Assembly: GCA_029261035.1 (NCBI GenBank) | Contig: JAJDCD010000008.1 | Coordinates: 34,313 to 98,312, forward strand | Length of the DNA: 64,000 bases | Direction of reading: 5' to 3' | Source of the DNA: Candidatus Omnitrophota bacterium | GTDB taxonomy: Bacteria; Omnitrophota; Omnitrophia; Omnitrophales; JACROU01 | Shown here: positions 3,967 through 46,200 of the stretch, one piece after another | Layout: each line of letters opens with the position of its first letter | How positions within the stretch are numbered: position 1 is the first letter of the stretch | Notes under the pieces: model-generated | What the model was told of the DNA's origin: nothing | Seen by the model: only the letters and a program-made list of their open reading frames with translations | Database searches by the model: none | Program-made: the position numbers and the translations under genes

Positions 3967-3994
3967 AATTCTTCATAGTTTCGTTTAATAACGA

Positions 3995-5098
3995 TTAGAC
4001 AATAGTTTCTTCAGTTTGGGTGTCAAAAAAGTGTGCTCGCGTCATATCAAAGACAACTTGCAAATCTTGATTTACTTGCGCCGTATCATGAGCATTTACT
4101 CTTGCCACGAAAGAATTAGATCCAGACTTAAGATACAAAAATATCTCCGCCCCCATTGGCTCAACAACATCAACGGTAGCTGTAGAGGTAAACTCCTCTC
4201 TCGCATTCTGGGCAAATAATTTATCATATATATTTTCTGGTCTAATTCCAAAAACAACTTCTTTTCCTTCATAAGCACTTATTTTTTCATAATGCTGATC
4301 AAATAATTTAGTTTTCAATTCCTGATCCTGAAAGTAAAAATCACCATCTTTGCGAATGATTTTTCCATTTAAGAAATTCATAGGTGGCGACCCTATAAAT
4401 CCAGCAACAAACTTATTACACGGATTTTCATATAGCTCAATAGGAGGGGCTACTTGTTGTATCAAACCATCTTTCATAACAACAATTCTATCCCCCATTG
4501 TGAGAGCTTCTACTTGATCATGGGTCACATAGATCATTGTTGTCTGAAGTCGATCATGTAATTTTTGAAGTTCCATTCTCATCTGAACACGTAACTTTGC
4601 ATCTAAATTACTTAAGGGTTCATCAAAAAGAAATACTTTTGGCTTTCTTACAATAGATCTCCCCACAGCGACTCTTTGGCTCTGCCCACCTGATAGTTCT
4701 TTTGGTTTACGATGAAGTAATTTTGAAATCCCTAAAATTTCCGCAGCTTCATTAACTCTTCGTTCGATTTCAATCTTTGGGTATTTTCTCAACTTAAGTC
4801 CAAAAGACATATTATCCGCAACAGACATATGAGGATATAAAGCATAGTTTTGAAACACCATTGCAATATCTCTATTTTTAGCGGGTGTATCATTCACCAA
4901 ATCATCCCCAATAAAGATCTCGCCTTTTGTAATCTCTTCCAGTCCAGCAACCATTCTTAGAGTTGTTGATTTTCCACAACCCGAAGGGCCAACAAAAACT
5001 ATAAACTCTTTGTCTTTTATTTCTAGGTTTACATCATTAACAGCAAGAACGTCTTCACCATAAACTTTAAATAGATTTTTTAAAGAAACATTTGCCAC
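3995..5098 (-). CDS. ABC transporter ATP-binding protein, MalK/UgpC/MsmK type with C-terminal regulatory (TOBE-like) domain
   Basis: Walker A GPSGCGKSTTLRMVAGLE, ABC signature LSGGQSQRVAVGRSIV, Walker B FLFDEPLSNLDAKLR, 367 aa. No permease or binding-protein gene is adjacent in the window. Confidence 0.85.
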   Translation of the reverse strand: MANVSLKNLFKVYGEDVLAVNDVNLEIKDKEFIVFVGPSGCGKSTTLRMVAGLEEITKGEIFIGDDLVNDTPAKNRDIAMVFQNYALYPHMSVADNMSFGLKLRKYPKIEIERRVNEAAEILGISKLLHRKPKELSGGQSQRVAVGRSIVRKPKVFLFDEPLSNLDAKLRVQMRMELQKLHDRLQTTMIYVTHDQVEALTMGDRIVVMKDGLIQQVAPPIELYENPCNKFVAGFIGSPPMNFLNGKIIRKDGDFYFQDQELKTKLFDQHYEKISAYEGKEVVFGIRPENIYDKLFAQNAREEFTSTATVDVVEPMGAEIFLYLKSGSNSFVARVNAHDTAQVNQDLQVVFDMTRAHFFDTQTEETIV

Positions 5099-10565: not shown

Positions 10566-13301
10566 TTATTTCTCAATTTTCTCAGTTTTTTCTGAATAAG
10601 CTTTTTTAGCAAAATGTACAAGATCTCCAAGAATTTTATCAGAAAATTCTTTCTGCAAACTAGACTCGGTCAAAAGATCTTTCAAACCACACCTTCCCAT
10701 CAACACAATGCTACTGATACCATTCCAAAGATTTTTTGAGATAAAAATACTTTTTAACATTTCCTCAAATTTCAAATCCGTCCAAGAGTAATCTTTGATA
10801 CCTTGCTTGTGTATATTACTAACAGATTCAGCTCCATCCAAAACAGACAAAACAGGCTTCCTTAATTTAGGTTCTAACAAATTATCCAAAAGCTCAATTG
10901 CATTAGCTCGAATATAATCATTTTCATCAGTAAAACCCTGAAAAACGATTCGGATGTCTTCAGGTTCACATAAGAGCCCTAATAGAAGAAAAATTCGATG
11001 CACAATCTCATCCAACCTTTTTTCCTGAGCAATCTGAAAAGCATCCGTATCACTAAAAGTTTTCTCCATTTTCCACTGATAGCCACTCAAAAATTTAAGT
11101 ATGTTTTCATATTCATTAATCTGAGCTAATATTTCCTTTTTTATAGTCTTTTCGTTAAAAACTAATTCCAAATTCTCTACACGTACTTTATTCATTGTTT
11201 CTAAAGTTGAGTTTTTTAACTTTCCACTCACCTGAGTTAGTAGATTTTCTAAAATTGATACAATTTTTTGTTTGGGAATCATGCCTGCAATCTTAAATAA
11301 TTTTACGCGACAAGATGTAGTTAATTCATTATCTTTTAATAATTTTTCAATTTCTTGCACAAATAATTCTTCATCTAAAATTAGATCCTCCATCACTTCC
11401 ATAACTCCATCTGAAGCATCCACTGATATATAAGCTCTTAATTTATCTTCTATCGCTTGTCTTTTTACATCGTTTGCATTCTTAGAATTCGTTACTTGAT
11501 CGATAGATGAAAAATCACTTTTAATCCTCTTATAATTTTTCCTCAAACCTTCAAACTCTTCCACAGACATACTTTCAGCATTTAAAACTAAAAATAAAAA
11601 GGCTACTTTTTGGATTAATGGGTATCGACTAGATAAATATTCTTTCATATCTGCTTCATTTGATTTTTTTGTACAATCTTCAAGGAACTGCATGTAAACT
11701 TCAATATCAATTAAATTTATTGCTTTTATTAAAATTCTTAACTCTTCTTCAATCTGAAGATCAAGCGGGTCCAAATCGTTAGGCTTAACAATAAGTTTCA
11801 GTTCCTTTTTTGCAACATCAAGCCTTTCTAGATCAAGCGAAACAAACAATTCACTGTTTTTACTGCTCTTAACATAATTTAAGAGTTTCAACACAAGGAA
11901 CCGGTCAGATAACTCAGAAGAAAGAAAAGTGTTCATATAACTATTAAGCAAAGCTGATTCACTTGATTTAACATCAATATGAGATATTTCCGTTTTCTCA
12001 CGATAGAGTTGTTTTCTTAACTCTTTTAAGTACTCCTTCTTCATCACAAAAGCAACAAACAACCAAACTCCAATCAAGAAAACAGTTAGGTAACTTAAAT
12101 TTTTCAAATCAGTAATTAAAAACCCCGTTACAAGCAATATCAACAGACTTCCAAATGCCTTAGCTGATCGATATCCAACCATATCTATAAATGGTTTAAC
12201 CTTATATCTAATTTCTCGGCTAATTGGCAAATACAGAACTTCTTTAGTTGCCTGATTTAGGGAGTAATTCAAACTACCGTCATACATCATAGTGAAAACA
12301 GCTGACCATAGTAACGGATGAATTAATATAGCAATATTTCCAAACAAAAGTCCTAGAGGTAAAATTAATAGTGCAACCTTCACTCCCAAATGTCGTAAGA
12401 CTTTGCTCGTTAGAAAAAACTGTATGGAAAAGGAAATCATATTTAACGTTCCCCAAAACCAACCAAAAAAAGCAGTCTTTCCCTCCAACCCAATAAAAGA
12501 AGTTTGAACTATTCCGTTAAACTGATATTCCACTAACGTTGAAACAAGTTTAGCTAAGAAAACAACGGAAAGAAGCATAATTAAATATTTAGATTTCCAT
12601 AAATCTTTAAATAAAACCTTCTCCCCTTTTTGCTCCTTCTTTTCATTTTCTTCTACTTCAATATCGTGATGCAACTTACTTTCAGGACTTGAATTTTCTC
12701 TTTTCCATACCCACTGAATTAGTATTACAGAAAAAAACAGAACGCACGCGGCTACAAGTAGCAAATTTATGGTTCCTACAGACTTCACCAAAATTCCAGT
12801 GACATACCCCCCCGTCATCCCGCCTAAAATGCCCCCACTACCTATAAAACCGAAAAGACGCTTCGCCTCTCTCGTATTAAAAATGTCATTCGACAGTGTC
12901 CAGAATTGTGTCACACTCATTATAGAAAAAATAGATACCCAAATATAAAAAATAGCTGGAAGAGCCCAAAAGTTCACATATGTCAACAACCACCAGAATG
13001 CAAAAATATTAGAAATAAAGAACAGAACTGTTCCTATCAATAACCTATTTTTTCTTTTTTTATTAGTAAAGCGAACATAAACAGAAACAACGCCCATAAG
13101 TACTAGAATTGTTATAAACCATACATACGGAAGGTTCTCAAACCCTGATTTTTCAAGAAAGATAGCACTGCGGATAGGCTTTAGGATATAAAGACAGGTA
13201 ATGGTAATGAAGAAATACACAAACATAAGAAGAGTTTTACCCCACTCTTCTCTTCTTATCTTAATAATTGGTTGAACTAGACGTGTAATTAAATTAAGCA
13301 T
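10566..13301 (-). CDS. TLC-family (ATP/ADP translocase-like, NTT-like) membrane transporter fused to a C-terminal HEAT-like repeat domain
   Basis: The N-terminal about 430 aa has roughly 12 TM helices with TLC-family landmarks (IIKIRREEWGKTLLMFVYFFITITCLYILKPIRSAIFL; FWTLSNDIFNTREAKRLFGFIGSGG, cf. Rickettsia Tlc EAKRFYSMFGLL). The C-terminal about 480 aa is soluble and helical-repeat-like. Confidence 0.65.
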   Translation of the reverse strand: MLNLITRLVQPIIKIRREEWGKTLLMFVYFFITITCLYILKPIRSAIFLEKSGFENLPYVWFITILVLMGVVSVYVRFTNKKRKNRLLIGTVLFFISNIFAFWWLLTYVNFWALPAIFYIWVSIFSIMSVTQFWTLSNDIFNTREAKRLFGFIGSGGILGGMTGGYVTGILVKSVGTINLLLVAACVLFFSVILIQWVWKRENSSPESKLHHDIEVEENEKKEQKGEKVLFKDLWKSKYLIMLLSVVFLAKLVSTLVEYQFNGIVQTSFIGLEGKTAFFGWFWGTLNMISFSIQFFLTSKVLRHLGVKVALLILPLGLLFGNIAILIHPLLWSAVFTMMYDGSLNYSLNQATKEVLYLPISREIRYKVKPFIDMVGYRSAKAFGSLLILLVTGFLITDLKNLSYLTVFLIGVWLFVAFVMKKEYLKELRKQLYREKTEISHIDVKSSESALLNSYMNTFLSSELSDRFLVLKLLNYVKSSKNSELFVSLDLERLDVAKKELKLIVKPNDLDPLDLQIEEELRILIKAINLIDIEVYMQFLEDCTKKSNEADMKEYLSSRYPLIQKVAFLFLVLNAESMSVEEFEGLRKNYKRIKSDFSSIDQVTNSKNANDVKRQAIEDKLRAYISVDASDGVMEVMEDLILDEELFVQEIEKLLKDNELTTSCRVKLFKIAGMIPKQKIVSILENLLTQVSGKLKNSTLETMNKVRVENLELVFNEKTIKKEILAQINEYENILKFLSGYQWKMEKTFSDTDAFQIAQEKRLDEIVHRIFLLLGLLCEPEDIRIVFQGFTDENDYIRANAIELLDNLLEPKLRKPVLSVLDGAESVSNIHKQGIKDYSWTDLKFEEMLKSIFISKNLWNGISSIVLMGRCGLKDLLTESSLQKEFSDKILGDLVHFAKKAYSEKTEKIEK

Positions 13302-28238: not shown

Positions 28239-31200
28239 TTACGCTGCTTGTGCAACAAGTCGTTCTGCTTCAATAGATAATCTTAAATTTTCTAGCAAAT
28301 CAAAAACAAGATGACTTCCCTCTAATCGAATACCCTTAACACCTAAAGTATCTTCAAACCACTCAGGATGAATCACAACACCATCGCTAGCAACTTTGGC
28401 TCTAGCTAAAACTAATTTAAATACAAAGGCAGCTAAACCTTCCCTGATTTCCCCATCCGCCTTTGAGTAACTCGCTGTCATATACTCTTCAGGTATTTTA
28501 GATTCCATCTCTCCCCATACGCCCTCAGTCATTATTCCAATTTTCAGACTATCAGAACGATCACTAAAAGTTTGTCTTCTAGCTTGTTTTTTAACAAAGC
28601 GAATATTAGTTTTTCCGTGAAGAACAGATCCTTTCCTCATCCATTCTGAAGCTTTAATCCTCTCATCATGATCTCTGGGGTTATATAGAATATATAACTG
28701 ATCTCTCTCTTTCATTTGCTGTATCCATTCTGGAAACGACTTCATGAGCCCTTCAAAAGAACTTAAATCTAAAATCACATCTACAACCTGATCCCCTATA
28801 AAAATATCTGAGTAATTCACCTTAATCTGATCCAAATCTCTTCTATCAACACTCCACATCAAAGTTGCTATCTCCATCGCACGAGTGAGAACCTCAGGCA
28901 TTTCCCGAGTAGATTGATATAACTGCCAAAAAGAACGTTTATACTCCTTACTTAGCTGAACTCCAAGAGCTGTTTCCAAATATTCAGCCAATAAAACTTC
29001 AGAAGAAAAATCTTCTTGCAGCAAGTGCGTTAACACAACATCCAATGAGAGAGTTTCACCTAAACTTCTGGCCAAGACTTCTCTATCAAGCCAAGGAGAT
29101 TCATCTTCTGGCACCACAAGTGTTTCAGAGGATTGACTCACTGCAAAAAATAGCTTGTTCAGTTGTTGAAACAAAACCTCCCAATCATCAGCACCATGTC
29201 TCTCAAAAACTTCTAATACCTCTTCAATTTTTCTAAAATCTTTATTCATTCCAATCTTTCCCAGAACTAACATCATTTTTCTTTTAGCTTCTTCAGAAAT
29301 ATCGTTTCTACTAAAGATTATCGTTAGAACCTCTTTTATTTGGGTCTCAATATTTTTTATTTGATTTTCATTAAACTCTAAAGGAATTTGGTATAAAAAG
29401 AAATAAGCTAAAAACAACCATTCTTTTGCTGTAGTGAACAAGTTTAAAAGATCCATACGGATGATATTTCCATTCAATCTTCCCTTACTAATACCGCTAC
29501 TTAAACTATTAAGAATATTTAAATAATTCCCTGGTAAGAATAAAAGAGCCCACTCTTTCTTAAAAAAATAATTATTTAACTCTGAATCGGATAATAGATA
29601 AAATTGGTTTAAAGCATACATCCAATTTTCTTCATTTAAACCTACAAATAATTCTATTAAATCAATATCCGCAAAGAGATTTTTTTCTGGGTTACTAATA
29701 GCCTCAGTAATAATCTTTTTAAATTCTAATGCTTCAAAATGAACAGGCGTTGATCGGGGCATTTTTCGAATCATTTCTAAGTAAATCATGATCCAACGTT
29801 CTATAAATTTTTCATCCATATTGGGATTTGCTTCTAAAAATGAAAAGAAAACATCCTTATAAACAGCCTGTGTCACAACGGGGTATTTCAGTTCAAACTC
29901 TTCAAATGAGAGTCCTAAACGTTCTGGTAAAATAGACGCTTCATAATCTTCTTCAAACCCTAAACTTTGACCTTGAATAGTTTCAAGATTGTTTTTGGTC
30001 AATTCAGCTGAAACTCCAATAACCCCGCCCAAACTAGTGGCATCCACAATTTCCCGACCCGATCCACTTAAGCTAGAACTTCCTCCTCTGGCTCCAGGAG
30101 AATAAACACCTTGTATAATATTGGATAAAACTTTCTTCATTGTTTCTGGCAATTTTGAAAGCTCGTTGTCTTTGAGTGAAAAGGAGAATTGAGACCCATA
30201 CACTTCTATCACATCCTCTGTTCCGGTCCCTAAACCTATACCAACATAATCCACAACAGAACCACCGACTCTTCCATTCTTCTTTCTTAACTCTTCCAAA
30301 AAGGCCATTACTTGATCTCTTGTACCCATACCATCTGTAATGACAAATACGTAGTGACGCTCTCCACCTACTTTTTGAATATCTTCCATTGATTTAAGAA
30401 TCGCGCTAAAGTCATCAGTGCCTCCATGAGCACCAATAGATCGGTATAAATCTTCTATTAAATATTCTTTTTCTCTTCGCGTTCCGTAAGACTGAGGCAC
30501 CGCATCAGCACCCTCTCTTAAGTCTTCTGGCTCTGTTTTTTGTCCCTTAAAACGCTTATGAAGGTGCGTTGAGCTACCAAAGCCTCGAACGGCAAAATCA
30601 ATACCAAGGTTTTGCAACGTTTCCATAAACACCACAGCTCCTTTAAGGGCGTTGTAACCCGCCATCCCTGCATGGGTGGGTTTATTGGCCTCAGAGTCTG
30701 CTGGAGTCCCTGACATACTGCCACTTTGGTCAATGAGCAGGGTGAATTTAATATCCTTCTTCTGTGGTAACACCTTTTGCTTATAGAACCTCATGTCCAC
30801 AAAGCCTCGAGCCATCGAATTCATTAACCGCCTAATATCAATGCGGCCTTTTTTCATTCCCGTAACTTCTTTAGGTCTTAAGGAGTTTTGAATCAAATCT
30901 CTTAAGTAGCCCGTTAAAGTCATAATAGTTCCTCCTAACCAACCCATCAGGTTGTCTCTTAGAGACCTAGGCTCGTTAATAGAAGCATCTTTCATAGCAT
31001 CTTGGTAATCTGTAGAATCTTCTTTAGTTCTATCTTTGGCATTTCCTGCAGCACCTTTTTTAATTTCATCTACTATCTTTGATTTATCTTTTTCTCCCAA
31101 AGCTTCCCAAATCTTTTTCCAATCCTTATCTGAAATTTTCTTTTTGCGCTTATCTTTAATTTTCCCTTCCACTGTCGCTCCCTCGCCTGAAGAATCTCCT

Positions 31201-34200
31201 GTAGAAGGTTGCTCAGGCATATCCCCTTCAATAATTAAATCTCCTTTAATTGTGATCTTTCCTTTGCTCGGTTTCCCTCCAGGAGGAGCTCCTGGCCCTA
31301 TATGAACATCTCCTTCGATAATAAGGTCTCCATCCCCAGACTCTCCTTCACCCTCTCCCTGCCCTTGCCCTTGACCTTGACCTTGACCCTGCCCTTGACC
31401 ACCCTTACCTTTATCTTTTTTCTGATTTTCCTGAGCATCTCGAACAGCCCATTTATAAACAACGGGCATAACAATGTCTTTGATCATCTCACCTTGTTCA
31501 CGAGCTAATTCTATTATTTTCACGTCCCCCTCTCTAAGTTCCGACTGAAAACGAGGAAGTCCTACATCGTCAAAGGTAACCGGAATCTTCGCGAATACAC
31601 TTCTCATTTGTGCTCGTTGATATTTACCTAGAATTTCATCTCTGTCTCCACCTTTATAGTGGTATCGATCCTTATCCCATGTCCCAAAAACTCCCGTAGC
31701 CAACAATTTCTCAACATCCTTTCTAAGGTCCGCATCCTTCTCACCAATAATTTCTAAAATTCTTGGGAACTTATCCTTAGAATCATCAAAATCTCCTCTT
31801 TTTGCTAACCACAACATTAGATTACTTAAGATGGATGAATAACTATGGTCTGTCTTAAATAGCTGTTCAACATCTTCCGTCCTAAACACAGCCTCATCAT
31901 TCATTCGTTTCAAAAAACGTGCGGCTCCTTTAAAACGTAATTTTGCCCAGTTCTCTATTCGACCATCTTCAATTATGTTGAATACGGTAGCTCCTAAAGA
32001 TGTATCTTTTAGAAATTCATAAAAAAGAGAAGAGTACCAAGTAGCATAGCGATGCATTGCTTCATGAATCGCTGTTCCTAGTACAGACTCTAAACTTTCC
32101 TCCATTAGAGCGCTTGCCGGAACAATCACCATGTTTTTACCTCTGTTAAATGCCCAATTCGCATCTTTTCCTGTTCTCACTTCTACATTCACTGTTCCTT
32201 TACTTACAGTTTCAAATGCTTGAACAAATATTTCAGCACGCTGTTCAGCACCCATCAACTTCCACCGACTGTCATCCGGTAAATCTTCTAATTCATCTGC
32301 ATTTTCTAATTCTTGGAAGGGGCGGTCACTCAAGACATCCATAGAAGCCATAAGCACCTCTTCTGGGTCCTTTAATGAACTCGATTCTGAATCTAATGAA
32401 GTCATAGAAGGCTGAATCATTTGAGGCTCTAATTCCGATCTCTGTTCAGGACTTTTAGGATCTGAAGGCTCTTCTAAAAGAACAACATCTTCTTGCTCAT
32501 CCAAATTAATTTCTTTGGACTGAACCAGTTTAAGTACACGTCCCACCAAAGACTGAATTCCTCCTAACATTATTTGATACATCTCATCCCTTCTTCGTTG
32601 ACTCCGAACCCAAACTTCTCTAAAACGACTCCTTAAAGCTGGAGACAACCCTACGCGCCCTGCATTCATCCCTGTACGACCTTCTGCAGGGTTCATTGTC
32701 CCAAACAATCTAAAATTAGGGTGGATATTTACATAAACACCTCCTTTTTCCAATATGCTCATCGTCCCACGATCAAAATATTCATTCAAAACTTCAATAA
32801 CACCTGCATCAGCCATGTTAATTTCTTCTAATACAAGAGCATACCCTCTTTCCATTGCTTGAATTAATACTCCTTTTTTAAATTCCATAGTCCCTGTGGA
32901 TTCATCTAAAACAAAACTCCCTATCAAACTTTCAATCGTAGCCGCTCCTAAGGATACGGACATATAAGGCCAATAAAGTTCACGAGCAATGTCCCCAATC
33001 ATTTCTGTTTTTCCACCACCCGAATGCCCTGTTAGGAGTACAGGCTTTGATTTATGAATCTCCACAGTCGAACCTTCACTATCTCTTACCTTTACAGTGC
33101 CTCCATCTCTAAAACCTTTTAATATTTGAGACCTCACATTACCCATAGATTTAATTTCCACCAATTTATCAATACGCTCTGCTTGAGAACGGAAATACTT
33201 GTCTATAACAGATTCTAAAATCAATTTATTCTCAGGAAGGTTTTGCAACATACCACCATAGAACTCTGAAATTATTTTTTTGTACCTTTCCTTCAAAGGA
33301 AGGTCACTATCCCTATCACGAACGGCTTCATCCATGACACGAGTCATAGAGCTGTCATCAATGGGGTTTAATCGGCCGCCTTCGTTTGAAACAAAAACCC
33401 CTTCCTGAATTAAAGCATTCACCTCAATATGGAAGGAATTTAACATATCATTTAAGTCTAATTTCTTTACCTTTACTCCATTTAACTCAATCCACTCCCC
33501 TAAATCATTTTGAGTTTGTCGAATTTTATAACCATCTATGTAAATATCTTCAAAAGCAACAACAGGCTTCAGATTACTAGTGACCGCTTTAGATGCTCTG
33601 CGAAAATCACTCATTTCAAGGGTTTTTGAACCCCTTTCAAAAAACAGTCTATTCCCTTCAATTAACTCTAAGCTGAAAGTTTGAAACCTTTCTAAAAAAG
33701 TCTTTTCATCCCCATCTCCACTAGACTCTTTTCGAAACATCAATCCAAAAGCTTGATTCGTTGAAAGAAAAAAGTCAGGGTTGACTGCTCTTAATTTCTC
33801 CTCCTGACTTTCAAGGTACCGAAATTTTAAATCTGGATCAACATCACTTTTTGAGTCATCCCATTCAATACTTCTTAGTAAATTCAAGGCCCCTTCTACT
33901 TCTAACGCAAAATTAGCTGCTTGTTTTTCAATAATTTCTTCAATTGATACTTCAGCTCTACCATCATCCGATTTCATTACTTCTTGAAAAGCATTATTAT
34001 TTTCTAAACTTTCATCGAAAGACTGAATTAAGAAACGCTCAAATAAAGCATTAAGTTTATTGATATTATTATTGCGGAACGGGTCATCTGAATTTGTTTG
34101 TGATAATAATCCATAATATTCTTGATATCCTGTCTTAAGAATTAAATCAAACAAAGACTCTTCTTCAGACCCTTCTTTAGAATATTGCAAAGCATCATGA

Positions 34201-37200
34201 ATAATTCTTTCTAAATTGCGAATAGAAAAACGGTATGATTGATCTGCATTAAAAGAGTCAAAGTACCCCTGCATACTCTTTTTATTCAACTCTATTTGAA
34301 ATTTCACAAACTCCCCTAATTGACGATATCGAATACCTTTTTTTGATAAATCATACTTTTTCATTAAAATTATGGTCATTTCTTCAACGCTCATGTCTCT
34401 AACGTGATGAATCTCAAAACGATTCATAAACGCTTCACTCATTCGATTTCGCCCCACATAATTAGACGGATTTCCACTCACAATAAGCTGAAACCCTTCA
34501 CCTGGATAAATCTTCTTACCTTGAAACTCCACATACCCTAATGTTAATAGCTGATAAAGCACTCCTATAGATTCTTCATTCGCTAAATTTACTTCATCTA
34601 ATAAAACAACATCTCCACGCTCGTACGCCTCCAAAAAAGCTCCTTTTTTAAAAATTAGCTCAATTCCAGTCAGCCCGTTAATAAGTAAAACAGAAAGGTC
34701 CAAAAGCTTTTTCTTAGCATTTAAATCAATTCCTCTAACCCCTGATCTCAGCAAATACTTTAAAATATACAACTCAATCAATTGCTCACTAGTGGTTTCT
34801 TTGGGTATCAAATCTCTTAAATGAAGCCTCATTTCATCTTCTGATATTTTAAGTTTTTTTAACGCCCTTTCTAAGCGGACATACTCTTTCTTCTCTAAGG
34901 CTTCCAGCAACACTTCCGTTGCTTTCCCTTCATCCATATCTATTTCTACAGGATGAAAACTACCGAACAAGTCATATTCATCCGTACGTCGGTTCATCTG
35001 AATTCTTGTCAGACGATTTCCTGACACATGAGCCACCAACTCAGCCATGGTCGATTTTCCACCAGCAGTTTCCCCCAACAACATGAGCGGATGATATTTT
35101 TTTCCATTAAATTTCGTTATAGTGACGCCGCTTCCGTGCTCCATCACATCCATTATTTGCGACATCAAAGCCTTACTTTCCTCTGTTAAAATAAATCCCC
35201 TTTCTTTTAAGACAACTTTTTCAAGACGGGCAACGACTTTGGAGCCACGAGAAACAACCCAAACATCACCTTCATCCTTCCATTCAAAAAAAGGAGAACC
35301 CAAATCTAAATCAGATGCAACATCCTTTTTAAAGACACTCCTATCGTCATCGTTGTTTAGCCTTAAATAATAGATTCTATTAACAGCATGTCTCAAGGCT
35401 TCGTCTTCAGAAACTCCATTTTGAATATCTCTAGAAATTACATCCACAATCCTGGAGACATCTCTTAAACTAGTAACATACCCTTCATTATTTTGAGTCC
35501 CTATCCTTCCTTCTTCCAAAGCTTTTTCAAATCCAGAGTAAATAGTGTAAATACGATTAACAATAGAGGAACTCACATTCGTTTGCCGATTGGAGAATTT
35601 TTTAAGAATAATATCTTGAACTTCTTTTTTAGATTTTTTATGAGAAACCCACACTTCATTAAATCGACTGCGAATAGCAGGCGACAAACCTACACGACCG
35701 CCACTAGCACTACTAATTCCCTGTTCCGGATTCATTGTTGCAAATAATCGGAAATTAGGATGTATCTTTACTTTTTCACCTGTCAAAGGATTTGTAAAAG
35801 TACCTTCATCAAAATATTCATTTAAAATTTCAATTAATCCAGACGTAGCCATATTCACTTCTTCAATAACAAAAATCGCACCCTCTTCCATTGCCTGAAT
35901 CAAAGCTCCAGGAACGTAATGCATTCTTTTAGTGTCTTCCTCCATTTCAAAGCCACCCACCAAACTTTCTAAATTAGCATTACCAAAAGAAATACTTCGG
36001 TACTTCCAACGCAAGCGGCGAGCCAAATCTCCAATCATTTCCGTCTTTCCACCTCCTGTTTGTCCCACGAGCATCACTGTAGACTTAGGGTCCATAAGTC
36101 CTTTAGCAATTGCATATTGAATTCGGTTCGTTTCTTTGCCTTCAGCAAGCTCTTCAATAATATCCGCCTCACTCGAGCCCTTTGGAAGATCATCATAAGA
36201 TCTTGTAGGAATAAATAGATCACCCATCCTTAACCCTTTGGGTGTATTTTCTTTCTGAGGAGATTCTGGCACTTCAAATTTAGGGAAATATTCTGCGGAA
36301 GTAAATAATACTTCAAGACGTTTAATATCTTCATCATCTCGACCTAAGATACTGCGGTAATTCATATAAGCTTCTCTTAGTAAAATCTGAGGCGAAGGAG
36401 GGGATGAATCGCTAGAAACCAATACCATCTGAGTATCTTTAACGATTTTCTTTATATTTCTTAATGTAAATTGATATGCTTTAGATGGATCCGAAGAATC
36501 CATATTAGAAAACTCCCCTTCCCGTATAGCTCTATTTACTTCCTTTTGAAATAAAGCTAAACGCTTAAAAGCACTTTCTAAACCCAAACTATATTGCTCC
36601 CATTCCCAGACGCTCGTGTTTTTAATTTCACTCGATATAATTTCCGTCATCTCTTCAGGTGTCATATTCGGAATATGATGAATTTCAAATCGGTTCATCA
36701 TAGCCTCTCCTAACTGATTTCTACCTGCATAGGTTGCTGGATTTGCAGTTGCAATAAATTTAAAACCCTTAGCCGGTCTGATTTTTTGAATTTTCTTAGT
36801 TTGCCTATCATAATACTCCACATAGCCCAAGGTTAATAATTGATACAAAACACCCAACACTTCAGGGCTAGCCAAATTGATCTCGTCTAAAACGACAACA
36901 TCTCCATTTTTGATAGACTTAAGCAAACGACCTTCTCTAAATTCAAGGTCTATATTCATAGACCCATTTTTTAAAATAAATGCGACATTCATAACCTTTC
37001 TTCTAGCAGCTTTTTTCTCTTGTGACTCTGTTCCAGATAAAGCATTTCCCAACCAACCTTTAAGCTCCTCCATCGTCTCCATATCAATTTCGTCTTTAGC
37101 CTGATACAAAGCTGTTTTAGATGAAGCTCTTCTAATTTGATCTACATCCATCTCCCCATGTTTCAATAGACTCATACTTTTTCTTAACTTCACCCAATCC

Positions 37201-40200
37201 TTGCGACTCATTGAGTTCATCAATATTCTATACGCTTCCTCAAAAGACAAGTCCACTTCTCTTGGCTCATAACTTCCAAAAAGATCCAATTCATCTATTC
37301 GCTCATTCATCTGAATTCGGGTATAACTCTGCCCCAAAAGATTGACAGCTGCATATTTCGCTAGAGAACTTTTACCTCCTGCAGTTTCTCCCATCAAAAG
37401 AGTTGGATTAAATTTATGAGCCTCAACGTCATTCGATGAAAGAGATAGTGTGGCTAAAAGACTCATTAAATTAGCTTTTGTTTGTGGACTTTCAACTAAT
37501 TGAGAATCTTTCACAATCACATTCAACCTTCTTTCAATCTCTTCCTCTGATAACGCAACATCGCTTTCTTCTATAATTTGTTGCCTCAAACTTTTGCTTA
37601 ATTGACTCAAATCAAATTGAGCAACTTTTACTCTTACTTTATTGTGAATTCCATAAACATTAAGAGCTCTATTCTCCCCACTCTCCACTACTTCATAATT
37701 CAACGAGTCTAAATTAACATTCTCTATACCTATGTTTGGGAATAAGGTTTCCAAGAGTTCTCCATCACTTTTTTCAAAAATACGGGACTGGTACACTCTT
37801 TTAATCGCTAAGGATAATGCCACATTCTCAGATTGGTTGAGCTCTTGAATCCCGTAGCTCATACCATAGATAATTCTTGTTAAATCTCTAATACTTGTAT
37901 AGTAAATATCAGATAAACGATTGCCGAAGAATCTTTTGTAATTTAAATAAAAATCAACAATACGTTCCACGGTTTTCTTTTCAATATTCTGAATCGCATT
38001 TTCACCCATGAGACCTTTTTGCTGAAACCTACCCTCAACAATTTCAATCAATTCTGAGCGAGTTTTTTCATGAGGAACCCAAACTTCTCTAAATCTATTT
38101 CTTAATGCCGGAGATAAGCTCACCCTTCCCGTATTCTCTCCAGAAACTCCTTCGATCGGATTCATTGTTGCCATCAACCTAAAATTATGATGGATATTAA
38201 CTCGCTCTCCTGTAAAAGGATTTGTAAAAGTCCCTTCATCAAAATACTCGTTTAAAATTTCTAATATGCCAGACTTAGCCATATTTAACTCTTCCAGAAC
38301 AAGTATATTCCCTTCTTCCATTGCTTGAATTAAGATCCCTGGACGATAAATAAATCGATGTTCCGCACGATCATATTCCATGGTTCCTATTAAGGTTTCT
38401 AAAGTAGCATCTCCCAAAGATACAGAGATATAATCCCAATTTAACTTATAAGCCAAATCGGCTATCATTTCACTTTTTCCACCTCCCGATTGCCCCACCA
38501 TTAAAACGGGCTCATTACGCCTAAGACCCTTTGCAATTTGGTACTGAATAGCCTTTGTAGATGACGTCTGGATCAAAGGTGGCACGACTCTTTCCGTTGG
38601 CTCTTCTGAATTAACCTGCGTAGAAATTCCTCCAATAACGAGTGATTCCGACTCTATATACTCGTAATCATCAAATTGAGTTAAGGAAGTCTCAATCATT
38701 TCATCAAAATCCTTAATCGTAAGGCCCAAATGAACCGAAAAAATAGTACGAATATTCTGAAAATCCGAATCTCCAGGAATTAGCCTCTGTCTTTTCCCTC
38801 CTTCAACTTCAGGATCTTCAATTTCTATTGTCTTACCCGAAAGATCTTCCATGCTATCTAAGTACCGTGGAGAACGAATTAAAATATTGGCATACTCACG
38901 ATAAGCAGCAGTAATCCATACCTGTTCATCAATGACAACTCCTTGCTCCTTTAGCTCTTTAACATCTTGATAAATTCTCAACAAATTTCTCATAGTAAAA
39001 ACATAATTAGCATCCCTACCCATCCTAGGAAAGGAACCACTTAGCAATTTGCTGTTAATTGTATTTTGTATAGCCGCTAAATATTTAATTAAATCTTGGT
39101 TGACTCCAAATTCTTCCTTTAAAACCTGGTCAGGATCTCTGCCAAGATAATCTCGACTCACTAAGCCTTTAATAATATTTGCCATCTCATAATCAGGTAT
39201 GGAGTCAATATTTAATATTTCAAAACGGTTCATAAATGCTTCACTCATTCTATTTCTACCTTCATAACTAGATGGGTTTGCTGTAGCCATAAGACGAGCT
39301 ATCTTACCAGCCTCACCTTCTATAACCTTTCCATTGTATTCAATATATCCTAAAGTTAACATTTGATACAAAACACCCAACATTTCTTCATTCGCCAAAT
39401 TAACTTCATCCAACAGAATCAAATCGCCCCTTCGATAAGCATCTAAAAATCTTCCTTCTTGATAAACAAGTCCTACTTCATTGTTTAATATATAAGCTAA
39501 TGATTTAATTTTTCTTATTTCATCCCAAGCTTTTGTTCCTTTTTTAATACTGTCTTCACCTTGTTTTAAGTAATGAGAGCTTTGTCCAGTATAAATTGAA
39601 AGTAATTTTTTTATTTTATTAACCACCCACTCATTTTGATCTTTTAAACTCAGAGTTGTGATTCGCTCTCTTTCTAAAGGACTGGATACAAACGCTTGAA
39701 TAAAATCACCTCTTTTGCCTATCTTCATTCGAACCAAAGCATCCTCTAATGCATTTAGGTTATTACTCTCTAAGGCTTCTCTAATTACTTTATCCGCATC
39801 CTGTAAAGAAATTTTTATTTCTCTAGGTTGAAACGAGCCAAACAAATCAAATTCATCCGTTCTCTGATTCACCTGAATTCGAGTAAAGCCCACATTTAAA
39901 ATATGAGAAACAATACTCGCCACGGTTGTCTTTCCCCCCGAAGTGACACCAAACTCCAAAACGGGATTAAACTTCTCATCTTCTCCACCGTCTAGACCTT
40001 GAAGAACATGGGCAATTTGTCTTTTTGTTGTTTCATTCAAAATCACTTGGGGAAAAGCCTCTGATATAGGAACGGATATCATTCCAGAGTAAAGTAAGCG
40101 CTTCTCTTTTGGGACAATTTCACGCACTTCAAAACGATACTGATCATTACCCTCATCATCTTGATCAACGATTCGCACTGTTTTTTGGTAGGGGCGCCTA

Positions 40201-43200
40201 CGTTCATATATTTTAATCCGTACTTCACCTTCAATGATTTCTTCTTCAAAATCATAGATAAAATCCAAAGGGTCGTCCTCCGTTATCAATCGATGCTTAA
40301 TCATCAAATTTCTCACCTTTTGCTTATCATCCAAATTTAAGCGATTATAATATCGACGTCGTACAGCAGCAGATACTGCTTCACTAATATTCCCATCATC
40401 TTTGTAATAACTTTGAACCATACTCATGGTTTTTTTCAAATCTCTAAGACTCACAAAGAGTGTTTCATTGTTCTCCAAACCTATATCACTTCTCTCTAAA
40501 GCTTTTTCATAATCCACATGAAAATTCACAATAGAAATAAAATAACGAAACGTATAAAGTAGATCTTTTAAATTCTTTATAGAATCCCCTACCATTCCTT
40601 TATAAAGATCCATCGCTTCTCTTAATAAAGCAGACGTTCCATCTTTTGCTGTTCTTGAAATTTGGGAAATGATTTGTAAAATCTCTGTTTCTTCAGCACT
40701 TCCTTCTTCAATTTTGAAAAAATTTCTAAGACCACTTAAAGGAAGTCGGACAAAGTCTTCGACACCCATATTGGCCAGAATTACACCTAAAGTTCTAAAG
40801 CGCTCAATATCATTATGCACCATCCCTTTATAATCTTTTAAAATACGCATGAGCATCGTCTTCAACTTAATATCACCTAGCTTCCCAAATGGCAAATCCA
40901 CTCCATACGTTGATTTTGATATATCAGCAATAGCAGTTAACAATTGAAAATCTGTAGCATCTGGAAACATTTTTGATTTTATATAACTTAAACTGTTTTC
41001 GTAACCCTCTGGCCCTCTATTCATTAACCAATCAAACTCTTCCTTAGATCCAAATAGATAGATATAAGTTAATACTTTAAACCCTTCCATCCCATGCTCG
41101 TCTAAAACTTTTCTGAATTTAGTTCTTAATTTTTCATCATTAGCCCCACTTTCCTCTTTACCAAACAAAAATAGAGATATGACTTTTTGAAGCTCATAAA
41201 ATACATGATACAATTCCTTCTGAGATGCTCCTGAAGAAGTTAGAATTGCCGCTTTGGTTACATCGCGTAAGGCTAAAATATCAGGTTGAGGCCCCCATTT
41301 AGCTTCTACATCATCCGCCCAACCTTTTAGCATGTTTGGTAGCGGCTGATTGACACTGGTACTTTCTAAGTAATCTAAAAGGTAAAATTTATCTTTAATA
41401 ACATAATTCACAAGCAACTCAACATAAGGCTTTTGATACAAAAGATCTAAGTCATGAACAATATGTTTTTCAACTCTACGCAGAGAGTCTAACTTTCCTA
41501 AAAACATTTGATTCTCTGTATTAGCTAATTTATTTATATGAACAATTTTACTTAATGCAAAATCAATAATTTTAGAATGATACTGACTCACGTACCCACT
41601 TTTTTCATACTCATCCATATAAGTTCGTCCTAATATCGTTTTTATTAGAGCTACCACAGCCTCTTCTTGAGAAGAAGACATCTCAGAAATCACTTCACCA
41701 CCTTGAAAAAGCTCTATTAATAGAAAAAGGTTATCCCCAGCACTAAGGATTAACTTAAAAAAATGATCTTCCTTAGAAAAAATAGACTCCTCTGCTTCTG
41801 CAGATTGATAAAAGAGAAGTGTTTTTGAGAAAATATCGGGAAATTCTGAGTGTTGTTTAGATAAAGATACAATAATGCTCAAGACTTCATCCTTTCGGCT
41901 AGCAGGTACCCTATCCTTCGTTATCTCATTCAGTAATAATAGAGCATCCACATTTTGAGCTAGAACCTCTCTCAATTCCCCATCCAAATCTTCCCAAGCA
42001 ATATAAAGTCGCCCGGCACTCGAAATCCCTAATTCATCATATTTTTCTTTAGCTCCTAAACTTTGAGCTTCAGCATCTGCAACTGAAGACAATGAGAGCC
42101 AATCATCTTCACTTCGGACAGAAACTGTAGCTACTTGATTCTCTACTTCTGAGACCCATATTTGAGAAAGTTGAAATAATTTTTCATTCACGCTCACTAA
42201 CCCTATCTTGTCAATTTCTTCCAAAACACCCAACACTTCCATTGATTTTTTACGTGCTAGGAAATAGGGGTAACGGCCACCCTCTTCTTCATCCGTCTCT
42301 ATAGATTTGATGTTTTCATTTGTTAACAAGAACAATCTTTCCAATCTAACCAAATTTATAGGCACTTTTGATTCTCTAGTCTCAATAACATATTTTTCAT
42401 ATGCTTGATACACACGTTCTAATAAATTCAACAATTCTTCTTGAGACACATTAAAATTAATCCCTCCAAGCAAATGAGAAAATAAGAATCTGAAGAACGA
42501 CCTATTTTGCTCTGATAATTTCAACATAACCTTAGGGTTATTCTCATTGAATCTCCTCTGTAAATTCAATAAATGATTCAAAACTACTTGAGAATCCCAC
42601 CCTATATCCATATTTTGATTTGCTAATTCTAGTAAAAATGATTGAGGAAGACTCAGGGGGTGAAACTCTTGATACACTTCCTTAATTTGTTCAGGAGTAT
42701 ATGTAATGGCCTTCAAACGACCTTGGGTGTAAAGTTCAAATAAATTCACCAAAAACTCTGATTTTAAACGTGAACCGAATATCAAAATAAGGAATTGGAT
42801 ATCCATATATCCATCCATTAAAGATTCATAATCACCAACACTTTCAATTTTTTCTAACAAATCCAAAACAAGAGGGCCGTTTTCTGCATAGTCATCACCA
42901 AGTAATTTTCGCAAGTCATCCCAAAAGGTATTTTCAACAACCTCATCCATATCAACAAAGTACTCTATCATTTTTTTAAAATCCAGAATTCCAGTTCCGA
43001 AGTTATTTATAAATACATCAAACACTTTCATTTCAAACAAAATATCGAATCGAGAATCCTCATCAACCAAACTTTCAAGTATGCGAACATCCTCTAAAAT
43101 CTTATAAAAATGCCGTATTACATCTGTGTTAATATTTTCCGACACTGGAATTTTTTTATTTCTGTTTAATTTAGATTTTAAAGATTTTATATATTTAAAA

Positions 43201-46200
43201 ATACCCGTTGCTCTTAGCAAAAGATCTCGCCAACGATCCAATTTTTCATCAGAACCCTTACCTGAAATATCATTACGCACTAAGATTTCTAATATCTCAA
43301 AAACAGAAGGCCCTTCCGAGGAAACGGTAGGCTCTAAAACCAATGCTTCCTCCAAAAAAACTAAGTCCTTATATTTATCACTAAACATATCCCAAGGCAT
43401 TCCAAGAGTTTCCTCTAGCCCTGACCTATCATAAGAATCATTCCCACCTAAACTTTTAGCTTCAATCAGAACAGGAGCCCGAGATAACCAATCTCCATCT
43501 TTAGCTTTTGGTTCTTCCTCAAGACTCTCTTTCTGCATGTTTAAATCATCTTCCCACTCTCTATCTAAATTCAGCAATAATTGATAAACATCATCAACAG
43601 GAATATGATCTAGCCGTTCCAGAACTTCGATCAACTCAGGCCCCTTTAAGGTATCAACAAAATAAGGGATTTCGGTAAGTTCCAATGTTGTTGTATTGAC
43701 ATAGCCCTTTTCCTCCATCATTCCTAGAAGCTTTGGATAAAACACATTCAAAAAAACAAGCGAGTCTATTTTTTTCAACAATTCCATAACGTTGTTAAGA
43801 CGATCTACAATAGAGGAGAGCTCAGCTTGATTCATATTAGGATCTAATCCTTCTATTAATTTTAAAATAATTCGACCATTCCCCGTACTCACCCCTACAT
43901 TTCTCAAAAAATGCAAAAGGTGCCCCTCCGTTAAAAAAGAAGGATTTACTCTCCCTTCAATAACCGAATCCAAAAATCCAATAATTAAACTATGATCATC
44001 TTCAGTCAATGCTATTTCAATATCAAAAATTTGTTCTAAATATCTATCAACACCACTAATAACTCCTTTCTCTTTCAAGAGGAGTAATCGAAATAAAATT
44101 TTATTAGCTAAAAATATATGAGGACCATACAACTGATTAAATCGAATAAAGTCTTCTTTTGAATACTCCGATCGATCAATTTGATTGTTCTTAAGGAGCT
44201 CCCCCAACTCTCTGAGTGCCTTAAAAACAGATATTTGTATGTGCTTTTTTCCTAACGGGGTCTGTTTTTCTAACATGTTTTTGATTAAAGGAAAGTCTAG
44301 AACAAATGGATCAATTAATTCTTTTTCCACCAAATTCAATAAAAGATCTATTTCTTTTGTAACTAAATACACCCCCCCTGGTTCCATTTTTTGAAGGAGA
44401 TAAACAAAAAGGCTAAGATTAAAATATCTTTCTCCATCAACCTTTTTTAATTTCTGCAGCAATAGAGTGAAACGCTCTAAAAACTCATCTTCGTGCCCCT
44501 CATAAAGCTGCCTTCCGATAAGCCTTCCTATTAAAATTAAATCATCTTTTAGTTTCATGAATTCAGCCCCAGATCTTTCTTGCCCCTCTTCATCAAGAAG
44601 ACCTAAAACTGCATCTAAAAACATGCTGTACTCTTCTCCAAATACAAAAGAAAAGAAATAACGAAATTCTGCCGGCAAATCTTCCCATTCCCAACCCAGA
44701 CTCTCTTTCAATGAAGAATTATCATAAATTTCTCTCCCCCCTAAACTTTTAGCTGAAATTAAAGCTTTTCCTCTCTCTAACCATTCCCCTTCTTCACTAA
44801 TTTCTTCACTTCTCCCTCCTGCCCCTTTCTGAATTTCAACGCGCCATACTTTACGTAGGTTTTCTATTTTTTCTATAGCAGCATCCTCTCCCACTTCACT
44901 TGCAGATTCTAATATTTCTAAAACCGTTTCTATATGATAGTTATTTAAATAATAACTTTGTAACTCTTTATCCTCTACAAGAAAGCCTTCCATGTATTCA
45001 AATAACAAGCTGTAGTAAAATTCATCATCCAAAACACGCTCAATCCGCATCAACAACTCTTCAACTTCATTTCCATCCATAGTTGGAGAAATTCCCGAAA
45101 TCAATAATAGCCCCAACTTTCCATTTCCACTCATAACTCCCAAATCTTTGTACAACTCAACAATTCTCCAATTATGAATTAAATAAGTATGAGAGACTCC
45201 GTCCAAGACTCTTTTCAACAGATTTGCTAAATCAAGATAACTCCCACCATTTAGAGCCGAAAGGTTCGGTGGGAAAAACTGTTTAGCAGCATCTTTATAG
45301 CTCTTAACTTTTTCTTGAAACTGCAATTGAATTAAATGAACTATAATTTTAAAAAAGTTTTGGGCTCTCATGTTGCTTTGAGACAGTAAAGCAACCAAAT
45401 ACTCATCCTTTAAAACCCGTCGCACCTCTTCATTTTCCTTTGCCATCACACCCAAAATCTCCAGAGAATCAAAGCCTATATCTTCATTTTCATCCCTTTC
45501 ATTAACAATCAAAGCTTTGATTAGTTCAGGGTTCAATACGGATGCATCTAGTTTGCCATTACGCACATCCAGAATAAGTCGATTAATACGAGATAAACTT
45601 ACGTACGTATTAGTTTCACTCATCATAAAGAAAAAGAAATCAGAATTAAATTTTTGAGCAATGTTCTCATCTTTTAAGGAGTCTAATAAGGTTAAAGTTT
45701 CTGAAATCACCTCAGCAATGTGATTATGCCTAGACATCCCATTCTTGAAGCCAAGATCATTTAAAATGATAATATCTTTCCATTTCATTAATTCTTTTTT
45801 ATATCCCTCTACTGAGGATTCACCAACAAAATTAATTACCGCATCAAACAACCTTAACATTGAACTTTGAATCACCCGAACACTAAAACCATATTGCATT
45901 TCCTCATCGAGATCTTCCCACTTTAACCCCGTTCTCTCTTCAATCCCTGAAGCTTCAAAAAACTCTTTAGCTTCTACAAGACCTAAGCTTTTAGCTGTTG
46001 CATTAGTATTCACTTCAATTTTTTCGAGTTCCCCCTTCATCTTTACGACATCTGGCCAATGAACAATCTCTCTCACCATCCCATTCATCTCAGCAGGAGA
46101 GATCGTTCCCTGTGAAGCCATTCTACGAATCAACGATAATCCCCATTCAACAAGAGCTGCTTTCCCCTGCACACCATCCAAAAACCGAGCTTCAGCTTCA

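Follow-up and report, generated by a model that had tools for sequence, protein, structure and literature searches.

A conserved HExxH domain with a predicted zincin fold in a VWA adaptor module fused to a midasin-like AAA_5 array of Candidatus Omnitrophota

Introduction

ATPases of the AAA_5/MoxR type that cooperate with VWA adaptors, such as NorQD, CbbQO, CobST, RavA-ViaA and midasin, are seen as machines for remodelling or metal insertion and not as proteases. Metal insertion is the task of the NorQD, CobST and CoxDE-type pairs (PMC13036017, PMC7159879). In this study, we describe a variant of these already known AAA_5/MoxR-VWA adaptor machines, which is encoded in a stretch of 64,000 nucleotides from a Candidatus Omnitrophota bacterium (contig JAJDCD010000008.1, positions 34,313 to 98,312 of the forward strand), hereafter called the window. 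The list of open reading frames (ORFs) and their translations contains a giant ORF (28239..47642, minus strand) for a midasin-like protein of 6,467 amino acids (aa), in which a HExxH motif is located between an array of AAA_5 modules and a VWA domain. The new element is a conserved adaptor family with a complete zincin signature in its N-domain, which occurs both as separate genes and as part of six-module, midasin-like fusions. This is a candidate case of ATP-driven remodelling that may be coupled to site-specific cleavage.

Among the described adaptors, CobT provides the most detailed picture. Its N-domain is built from a single helix, a sheet of three strands and eight helices, was described as 'resembling peptidase M48C', and docks on the lid subdomain of CobS and on CobN (bioRxiv 10.64898/2026.07.21.739949). 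It is followed by a disordered linker of approximately 90 aa and by a VWA domain that is extended at its N-terminus; the 'shaft' of this extension enters the CobS ring upon nucleotide binding, and the MIDAS faces the client (bioRxiv 10.64898/2026.07.21.739949). In NorQD, a finger is located in the pore, the N-domain of NorD rests on the NorQ lid, and the linker is stretched by rotation (PMC13036017). For midasin, the prevailing view is that the concatenation of six AAA modules arose early in eukaryotes and was derived from MoxR (PMC3495828).

Conservation of the HExxH motif

The motif AIHEAMHRY (aa 5191-5199, nt 32046-32072, minus strand) is preceded by a low-complexity linker and followed by a VWA domain of the MIDAS type. 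Its core, HEAMH (aa 5193-5197, 32052..32066, minus strand), is the putative zinc-binding and catalytic motif, and its two histidines and the glutamate are invariant in the alignments. An earlier note on this DNA had placed the HExxH at nt 32053-32067; the motif is present, one base away from that position. It is the only HExxH in the 6,467-aa protein. Because 0.10 occurrences are expected by chance from the amino acid composition, the lone motif by itself is weak evidence and conservation has to decide.

A word-indexed protein search with the domain alone gave no match and its profile version returned six short unannotated proteins; the family was recovered only by an exhaustive search of 1.84 billion representatives. 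This search yielded 31 proteins at E<=1e-3, 30 of which contain the domain according to a local hidden Markov model (HMM), and the six further members from the profile search keep HExxH as well. A genome scan, for which an alignment from the sixth AAA module (AAA6) to HExxH served as query, revealed nine loci (L001-L009). Seven of them are labelled as Candidatus Omnitrophota metagenome-assembled genomes, and their giant ORFs share 43-55% identity with the query over the query region. The metagenomic fragment P0001 is 53% identical and stops shortly past the HExxH motif.

HExxH is kept in the nine Omnitrophota orthologues and in P0001, as well as in approximately 35 remote relatives. All orthologues show the sequence [IV]HE[AS]MHR, followed by FNxxEDGRIE. 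In alignments of 36, 26 and 23 sequences, which are 19-56% identical to the window protein, W5163, H5193, E5194, H5197 and D5226 are invariant, and N5222, E5225, R5228 and W5232 are conserved in at least 90%. The invariant D5226 is located 29 residues downstream of HExxH within the sequence NxxEDxRIE, which in the window protein is part of the segment NIIEDGRIENW (aa 5222-5232, 31947..31979, minus strand). The structural model places this segment on the helix after the HExxH helix.

The earlier note had linked its reading of the motif to conservation among homologues and to a third zinc ligand further downstream. HExxH is invariant in orthologues and remote relatives alike, and it is followed by a conserved acidic pair that could provide the third ligand. 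The alignments and the model suggest E5225 or D5226 as candidate third metal ligand.

A chance pentapeptide without function would be the simplest alternative, and for a protein of such size and composition the expected number of occurrences is not negligible. This explanation was rejected, because the motif is invariant in approximately 45 homologues down to 19% identity and is part of a helix in a zincin-like fold that was predicted with confidence. Conservation refutes it, and we consider it virtually impossible.

Predicted fold and family of the HExxH domain

The HExxH domain comprises aa 5125-5412 (31407..32270, minus strand), and its assignment as a zincin-fold domain is based on an AlphaFold2 (AF2) model together with Foldseek and profile matches. 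The input for AF2 was a 23-row alignment that was built without locus-derived orthologue sequences. The resulting model has a predicted local distance difference test (pLDDT) score of 89.6 and a predicted TM-score (pTM) of 0.87. It shows an N-terminal helix, three strands, the HExxH helix, a short hairpin, the long NxxEDxRIENW helix, a helical bundle and a long C-terminal helix. H5193, E5194 and H5197 are positioned on model helix 60-76, and E5225/D5226 on helix 91-112. The structure prediction that had been proposed for this region thus gives a confident model with zincin topology, in which HExxH would lie on the active-site helix of an approximately 290-aa domain of the minigluzincin/M48-like type.

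When the model was compared with the PDB by Foldseek, the ten best matches were minigluzincins (selecase, projannalysin and proabylysin; probability 0.91-1.0, E approximately 0.1). The subsequent matches included the zincins MATCAP, BlaR1, ZMPSTE24, Spartan, snapalysin and IrrE, with top E-values of 0.1-2 overall. Independently, a comparison of the sequence profile with PDB sequences recovered these minigluzincins, with matches that cover the sheet and the HExxH helix (E 0.04), and also the N-domain of CobT, where the match covers the NxxED helix (E 0.13). The full-domain profile matched selecase and, spuriously, a flagellin-hook repeat and CutA.

With minigluzincins and the M48/M56 cores, the domain shares the minimal scaffold of a helix, a three-stranded sheet, the HExxH helix and a ligand-bearing helix. 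Yet minigluzincins are stand-alone proteins of approximately 110 aa, whereas the domain of the giant contains an additional helical part of approximately 170 aa. The similarity is also weak (E-values 0.04-0.5, identity 12-17%), and NxxEDxRIE has no obvious counterpart in the downstream motif of the minigluzincins.

In a Foldseek search of predicted viral structures with the N-domain model alone, the phage protein 'Cobalt chelatase, CobT subunit' ranked first (TMq 0.52, E 4.6e-5, 306 columns), ahead of VWA and CobT-VWA proteins of 600-780 aa from phages and archaeal viruses; the matched region of the phage CobT-like proteins lies outside their VWA domain. The HExxH segment had no relevant match in Pfam (E<=10), in NCBIfam (C-terminal third of the protein, E<=10) or in PHROGs (E<=0.01). 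A Pfam scan of 23 family members produced weak matches only, namely to SprT-like in two members (E 0.0095) and to CobT PF06213 in one (E 0.011). The HExxH domain is therefore a family without a Pfam, NCBIfam or PHROG model, i.e. an annotation gap at the family level, and our literature search found no paper on this domain family or on a zincin-bearing VWA adaptor.

The earlier note had expected similarity to DUF2201_N-like profiles, and the domain could accordingly be a divergent DUF2201_N (PF13203) followed by DUF2201 (PF09967). The concept is the same, as DUF2201_N/DUF2201 proteins carry a HExxH domain before a VWA-like domain and are partnered with MoxR-type ATPases. Weak matches in BFVD to phage proteins annotated as 'Metallopeptidase domain' and 'VWA-like domain' (E 0.2-0.5) also agree with such a relationship. 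However, neither the window segment nor any of the 23 family members matches PF13203 or PF09967 at E<=10, and this part of the earlier proposal was not supported. In addition, the VWA matches are to VWA, VWA_CoxE, VWA_2 and CobT_C, and CobT-like proteins fit far better in structure. We therefore regard membership in DUF2201_N/DUF2201 as very improbable.

The VWA domain and the flanking linkers

The VWA domain and its N-terminal helical/hairpin extension (aa 5545-5872, 30027..31010, minus strand) are of the NorD/CobT/midasin type according to the AF2 model (pLDDT 83.3) and Foldseek, and this region is common to the giants and the stand-alone relatives. The best structural match was the NorD VWA domain in NorQD complexes (9qhe_G, E 5.6e-11), followed by the MIDAS domains of human MDN1 (3.5e-9) and Rea1 (2.9e-7). 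The MIDAS motif DQSGS (aa 5638-5642, 30717..30731, minus strand) contains a D and two S residues that are invariant in 15 sequences, and D5770 of the TDG motif is invariant in the same set. Weak sequence matches of this region were to Pfam VWA_CoxE, the NCBIfam CobT model and a CobT-like PHROG; the NCBIfam CobT model TIGR01651 reached 11.3 bits just before the VWA domain, against a cut-off of 759. A VWA domain downstream of the HExxH motif, as anticipated earlier, is confirmed both by the invariant MIDAS residues and by the similarity of the model to NorD and midasin MIDAS domains.

Within the extension, the conserved pre-MIDAS element KKGRIDIRRLMN (aa 5597-5608, 30819..30854, minus strand) was recognised by alignment with the Rea1 MIDAS chain 6qt8. 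It aligns residue by residue with GkRLNIKKIIPYIA, which is located just N-terminal of the MIDAS motif in that chain, and G5599 is invariant. By analogy, this element is a candidate for a pore-inserting finger that would correspond to the finger of NorD, the shaft of CobT or the MIDAS loop of midasin (cf. PMC13036017, bioRxiv 10.64898/2026.07.21.739949).

The HExxH domain is flanked by two linkers. Linker 1 (aa 5047-5124, 32271..32504, minus strand) is a low-complexity segment that precedes the domain and is rich in D/E in the window protein only. It contains 30% D/E and 5% K/R here, in contrast to 8-17% D/E in the orthologues, where it is 59-84 aa long in those sequences in which anchors were found, and it cannot be aligned between orthologues. 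Because the orthologue linkers contain so few acidic residues, the conserved trait is a disordered spacer and not acidity. The acidic stretch that had been noted before the motif is thus genuine in the window protein and is not a conserved feature, and linker 1 was rejected as a conserved midasin-like D/E region.

Linker 2 (aa 5413-5544, 31011..31406, minus strand) connects the predicted zincin domain with the VWA domain. It is composed of a Gly/Gln/Glu/Lys-rich low-complexity part and, just before the VWA extension, a charged stretch that is conserved. The low-complexity part comprises 26-94 aa and is G/E/K-rich in the orthologues. To judge from these sequences, linker 2 is the conserved low-complexity spacer of the module, and its position corresponds to that of the disordered, D/E-rich linker of CobT (bioRxiv 10.64898/2026.07.21.739949).

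Stand-alone relatives and fusion to a six-module AAA_5 array

The same HExxH-VWA combination is found in stand-alone proteins of 525-843 aa (P0018, P0022, P0023, P0025, P0026 and P0032), which contain an N-terminal HExxH and a C-terminal VWA, VWA_CoxE or CobT_C domain. On three of the four informative contigs (L013, L016 and L019), the stand-alone gene is located immediately downstream of an AAA_5 gene for a protein of 446-522 aa, with the two genes abutting or overlapping by a few base pairs. On the fourth, the neighbour encodes an unannotated 247-aa protein, and a fifth contig is too short to judge. The partner AAA_5 ATPases are approximately 24-38% identical to the AAA modules of the giant.

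Two further giants show a similar order of domains. P0019 contains six AAA_5 stretches, followed by HExxH and VWA, and TPR repeats at its N-terminus. P0015 (3,628 aa, from the representative search) is composed of HEAT repeats, AAA_5, HExxH, VWA and, at the C-terminus, an Mpv17/PMP22 membrane-protein domain. Evidently, the N-terminal 'cargo or scaffold' regions can be exchanged among these giants.

In the window protein, the array consists of six AAA_5 modules of alternating odd and even type (aa ~2540-5040, 32523..40025, minus strand). From aa ~2500 to 5010, the protein matched Pfam AAA_5 in several stretches as well as lid domains of the midasin type, and Walker A motifs are present at aa 2569, 3054, 3422, 3864, 4194 and 4876. 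Walker B motifs were identified by a motif scan in modules 1-5 and read by eye in AAA6. The earlier note had interpreted the giant as a MoxR-like ATPase in six copies that is fused to its usual HExxH-VWA partner. Six copies are confirmed by the six Walker A motifs within AAA_5 modules, and the fusion is supported because stand-alone HExxH-VWA genes directly follow single AAA_5 genes and other giants repeat the order. The HExxH-VWA module can hence be described as a CobT/NorD-type adaptor that is joined in cis to a midasin-like AAA_5 ring of six modules and that in other bacteria is encoded by a separate gene directly after a single AAA_5 gene.

When the array was compared with solved sequences, midasin was by far the closest (E 1.7e-88), followed by CobS (3e-10) and NorQ (2e-6). 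The giant has the midasin-like layout of six AAA_5 modules and a C-terminal MIDAS/VWA domain on one polypeptide. As in midasin (Rea1/Mdn1), there are six AAA_5 modules per chain, and the MIDAS domain follows a low-complexity acidic stretch; the MIDAS domains are also alike in structure and in the pre-MIDAS motif. Differences are nevertheless evident: the family profile of the HExxH domain detects no zincin-like domain in midasin, and the N- and C-terminal repeat regions of the Omnitrophota giant are unrelated to midasin. Midasin also contains a linker domain of approximately 1,700 aa and a far longer D/E-rich region.

The odd modules (1, 3 and 5) share 33-38% mutual identity and contain an insert of approximately 150 aa between Walker A and Walker B; the even modules (2, 4 and 6) are 55-57% identical to each other. 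This threefold odd-even pattern suggests a triplication of a two-module unit, separate from midasin. Because the modules alternate in this way, the sequences hint at an independent origin of the bacterial six-module array relative to eukaryotic midasin. The complete layout of midasin (six AAA_5 modules, low-complexity linker and MIDAS) is thus present in bacterial proteins, which provides a test of the accepted history, as the literature places the origin of this layout early in eukaryotes (PMC3495828). A literature search for midasin-like proteins of bacteria yielded nothing specific and no description of a midasin-like giant in Omnitrophota, and the giant Omnitrophota ORFs that are treated in papers are other proteins, which are transmembrane and adhesin-like.

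Relationship to CobT and NorD and alternative roles of the HExxH site

The Omnitrophota module and CobT show the same order of an N-domain, a disordered low-complexity linker and a VWA domain with N-terminal extension and MIDAS, and both work with an AAA_5-type partner. The helix with the family sequence 'NxxEDxRIE...G' aligns with 'FDAVEQARVEA..G' of CobT. We examined seven CobT sequences (plasmid records, L020, L021-L026), none of which contains HExxH; DSMAL or a variant is aligned with the motif instead. The ED pair of the family is replaced by EQ in most of them and by E-A, E-R or E-T in the rest, such that all seven lack the invariant Asp. In six of these CobTs, the linker is strongly D/E-rich and resembles the stretch that precedes the MIDAS of midasin. 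The solved chain of CobT_N (21VU) was not among the matches of the structure search, perhaps because it is not yet contained in the structure library.

CobT differs from the giant in being a separate protein of approximately 630 aa that works with homohexameric CobS and with CobN, whereas the Omnitrophota module is fused to six concatenated AAA modules. The Pfam model PF06213 was matched by a single family member and not by the window protein, TIGR01651 remained far below its cut-off, and no link of the giant to cobalamin synthesis was seen. Judged by these sequence comparisons, the module is not a CobT; it is CobT/NorD-like in design, and its N-domain is probably homologous to that of CobT. 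The CobT N-domains look like a pseudo-peptidase derivative of a zincin adaptor domain, which would offer an evolutionary explanation for an N-domain that is 'M48C-like' but lacks the motif.

NorD/NorQ, and likewise CbbO/CbbQ, have the same domain order, and NorD is the best solved structural match of the VWA part. In contrast, no sequence similarity of the HExxH domain to the NorD N-domain was detected, as NorD chains are absent from the profile matches at E<=10. The client of NorD is nitric oxide reductase. A HExxH motif is not known from NorD.

These comparisons raise the question of whether the domain is catalytic at all. It could be a non-catalytic docking or peptide-binding module on the AAA lid or on a client, in which the metal site is kept for the stability of the fold or for peptide or carboxylate binding. 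CobT_N, in the same position and with a similar fold, serves purely to dock on the CobS lid and on CobN, and the N-domain of NorD also binds to the NorQ lid. Pseudo-peptidases with a partly retained zincin motif are common. However, the docking-only CobT has lost the motif (DSMAL instead of HExxH, EQ instead of ED), while in the family both His, the Glu and the Asp further downstream are kept throughout, and for this reason a working metal-dependent hydrolase is favoured. Furthermore, the Glu of HExxH is unnecessary for merely holding a metal. A docking role thus appears possible, if somewhat unlikely.

Another possible explanation is that HExxH/ED constitutes a metal-handling site, from which an ion is inserted into a client, as described for NorQD (Fe), CobST (Co) and CoxDE (Cu). 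The characterised pairs of MoxR-class ATPases and VWA proteins are mostly metal-insertion chaperones (PMC13036017, PMC7159879), and the closest analogue of the module is a chelatase subunit. Yet it is in this chelatase that the corresponding site is degenerate, and features of peptide hydrolases are seen in the invariant Glu, in the zincin topology and in W5163, which is conserved in a strand of the sheet. Moreover, among the ten neighbouring ORFs that were scanned, neither a metalloenzyme client nor a chelatase large subunit was noticed. We consider a metal-handling site quite improbable.

Proposed mode of action

By analogy with NorQD and CobST, we propose that the pre-MIDAS element would enter the AAA pore, while the predicted zincin domain would dock on an AAA lid subdomain. 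ATP hydrolysis could then rotate the VWA domain relative to the N-domain or stretch the adaptor, and the MIDAS would capture an acidic residue of the client. In this arrangement, the zincin domain would introduce a limited, site-specific and metal-dependent cut into the held client or into the protein's own linkers. Processive degradation is not part of this proposal: a processive unfoldase-protease mode, in line with the combination of unfolding and proteolysis that the earlier note had considered, would fit this ATPase class poorly, because in NorQD and CobST the finger of the VWA partner fills the pore and substrate is not threaded (PMC13036017; bioRxiv 10.64898/2026.07.21.739949).

Several points weigh against this proposal. 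Solved zincins are matched weakly (Foldseek E ~0.1, HMM E ~0.04). Alignment of the family with the seven CobT N-domains by hhalign is collinear over 114-178 columns and statistically weak (E 0.002-0.009, probability 5-14%). The N-domain of CobT, the best characterised analogue, acts as a non-catalytic docking domain, and the homologues were collected with a query that contains HExxH, which biases the set toward intact members. The structural and architectural part of our explanation is nonetheless very likely to be correct. For actual peptidase activity of the HExxH domain, the chances are about even. The overall explanation, i.e. a zincin-fold adaptor module that is coupled to the AAA ring and performs metal-dependent limited cleavage, is in our judgement somewhat on the probable side.

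A further-reaching interpretation would make the giant the first AAA+ machine of the MoxR/midasin class that contains an active protease of its own, functioning as a self-processing polyprotein or as a cargo dispenser of a predatory or parasitic nanobacterium, with CobT_N as a degenerate descendant of such an ancestral peptidase adaptor. The zincin would cut at defined sites in a client, or in the giant's own repeat modules, while these are held by MIDAS and finger. Candidate sites would be the conserved inter-module motif W-L-x-R...A-K-S-L-G-G of the window protein and ...LW...R-S-E-V-R in the orthologues. We consider this interpretation unlikely.

Genomic context and terminal regions of the giant

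The window has a G+C content of 35.5%, and the ten neighbouring ORFs that were scanned have housekeeping functions, including NAD synthase, arginyl-tRNA synthetase (ArgRS), DAHP synthase and a TLC ATP/ADP translocase. The TLC ATP/ADP-translocase domain is part of a 911-aa ORF (window 10566-13301, minus strand). TLC ATP/ADP translocases are a marker of energy parasitism and were reported from some Omnitrophota classes (PMC10066038).

The pairs of AAA_5 and stand-alone HExxH-VWA genes on the L019 contig (SRR21524775_60661) and at L016 are located near genes that are typical of defence or mobile regions. These encode a ParE/PhdYeFM toxin-antitoxin system, a NERD/helicase protein, and a metallophosphatase followed by a large SMC-type ATPase. 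A comparison with PADLOC gave no match for the module of the giant or for the stand-alone pairs at E<=0.001.

The N-terminal region of the giant (window 40026-47642, minus strand) contains at least three tandem repeats of approximately 430 aa (aa ~552-1861), and the repeats at aa 552-965 and aa 966-1396 are 25% identical (E 5e-23). Each repeat opens with the motif W-L-x-R...A-[KQ]-S-L-G-G, which is present at aa 552, 966, 1397 and 1861. The motif recurs after the VWA domain at aa 5870, 5893 and 6193 (aa 5870-6200 correspond to window ~29040-30035), and the equivalent boundary motif of the orthologues, ...LW...R[SA]E[VLI]R, occurs in 4-9 copies. This boundary motif might be a recognition or cleavage site.

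The predicted N-terminus of the giant, MIMKKTNRLISTFVLFFFLCSQG (aa 1-23, window 47574-47642, minus strand), resembles a membrane anchor or signal peptide, a feature that is unexpected in a machine driven by ATP. A basic stretch with a hydrophobic one behind it is likewise present at the start of two further giants of this family, P0019 and P0031.

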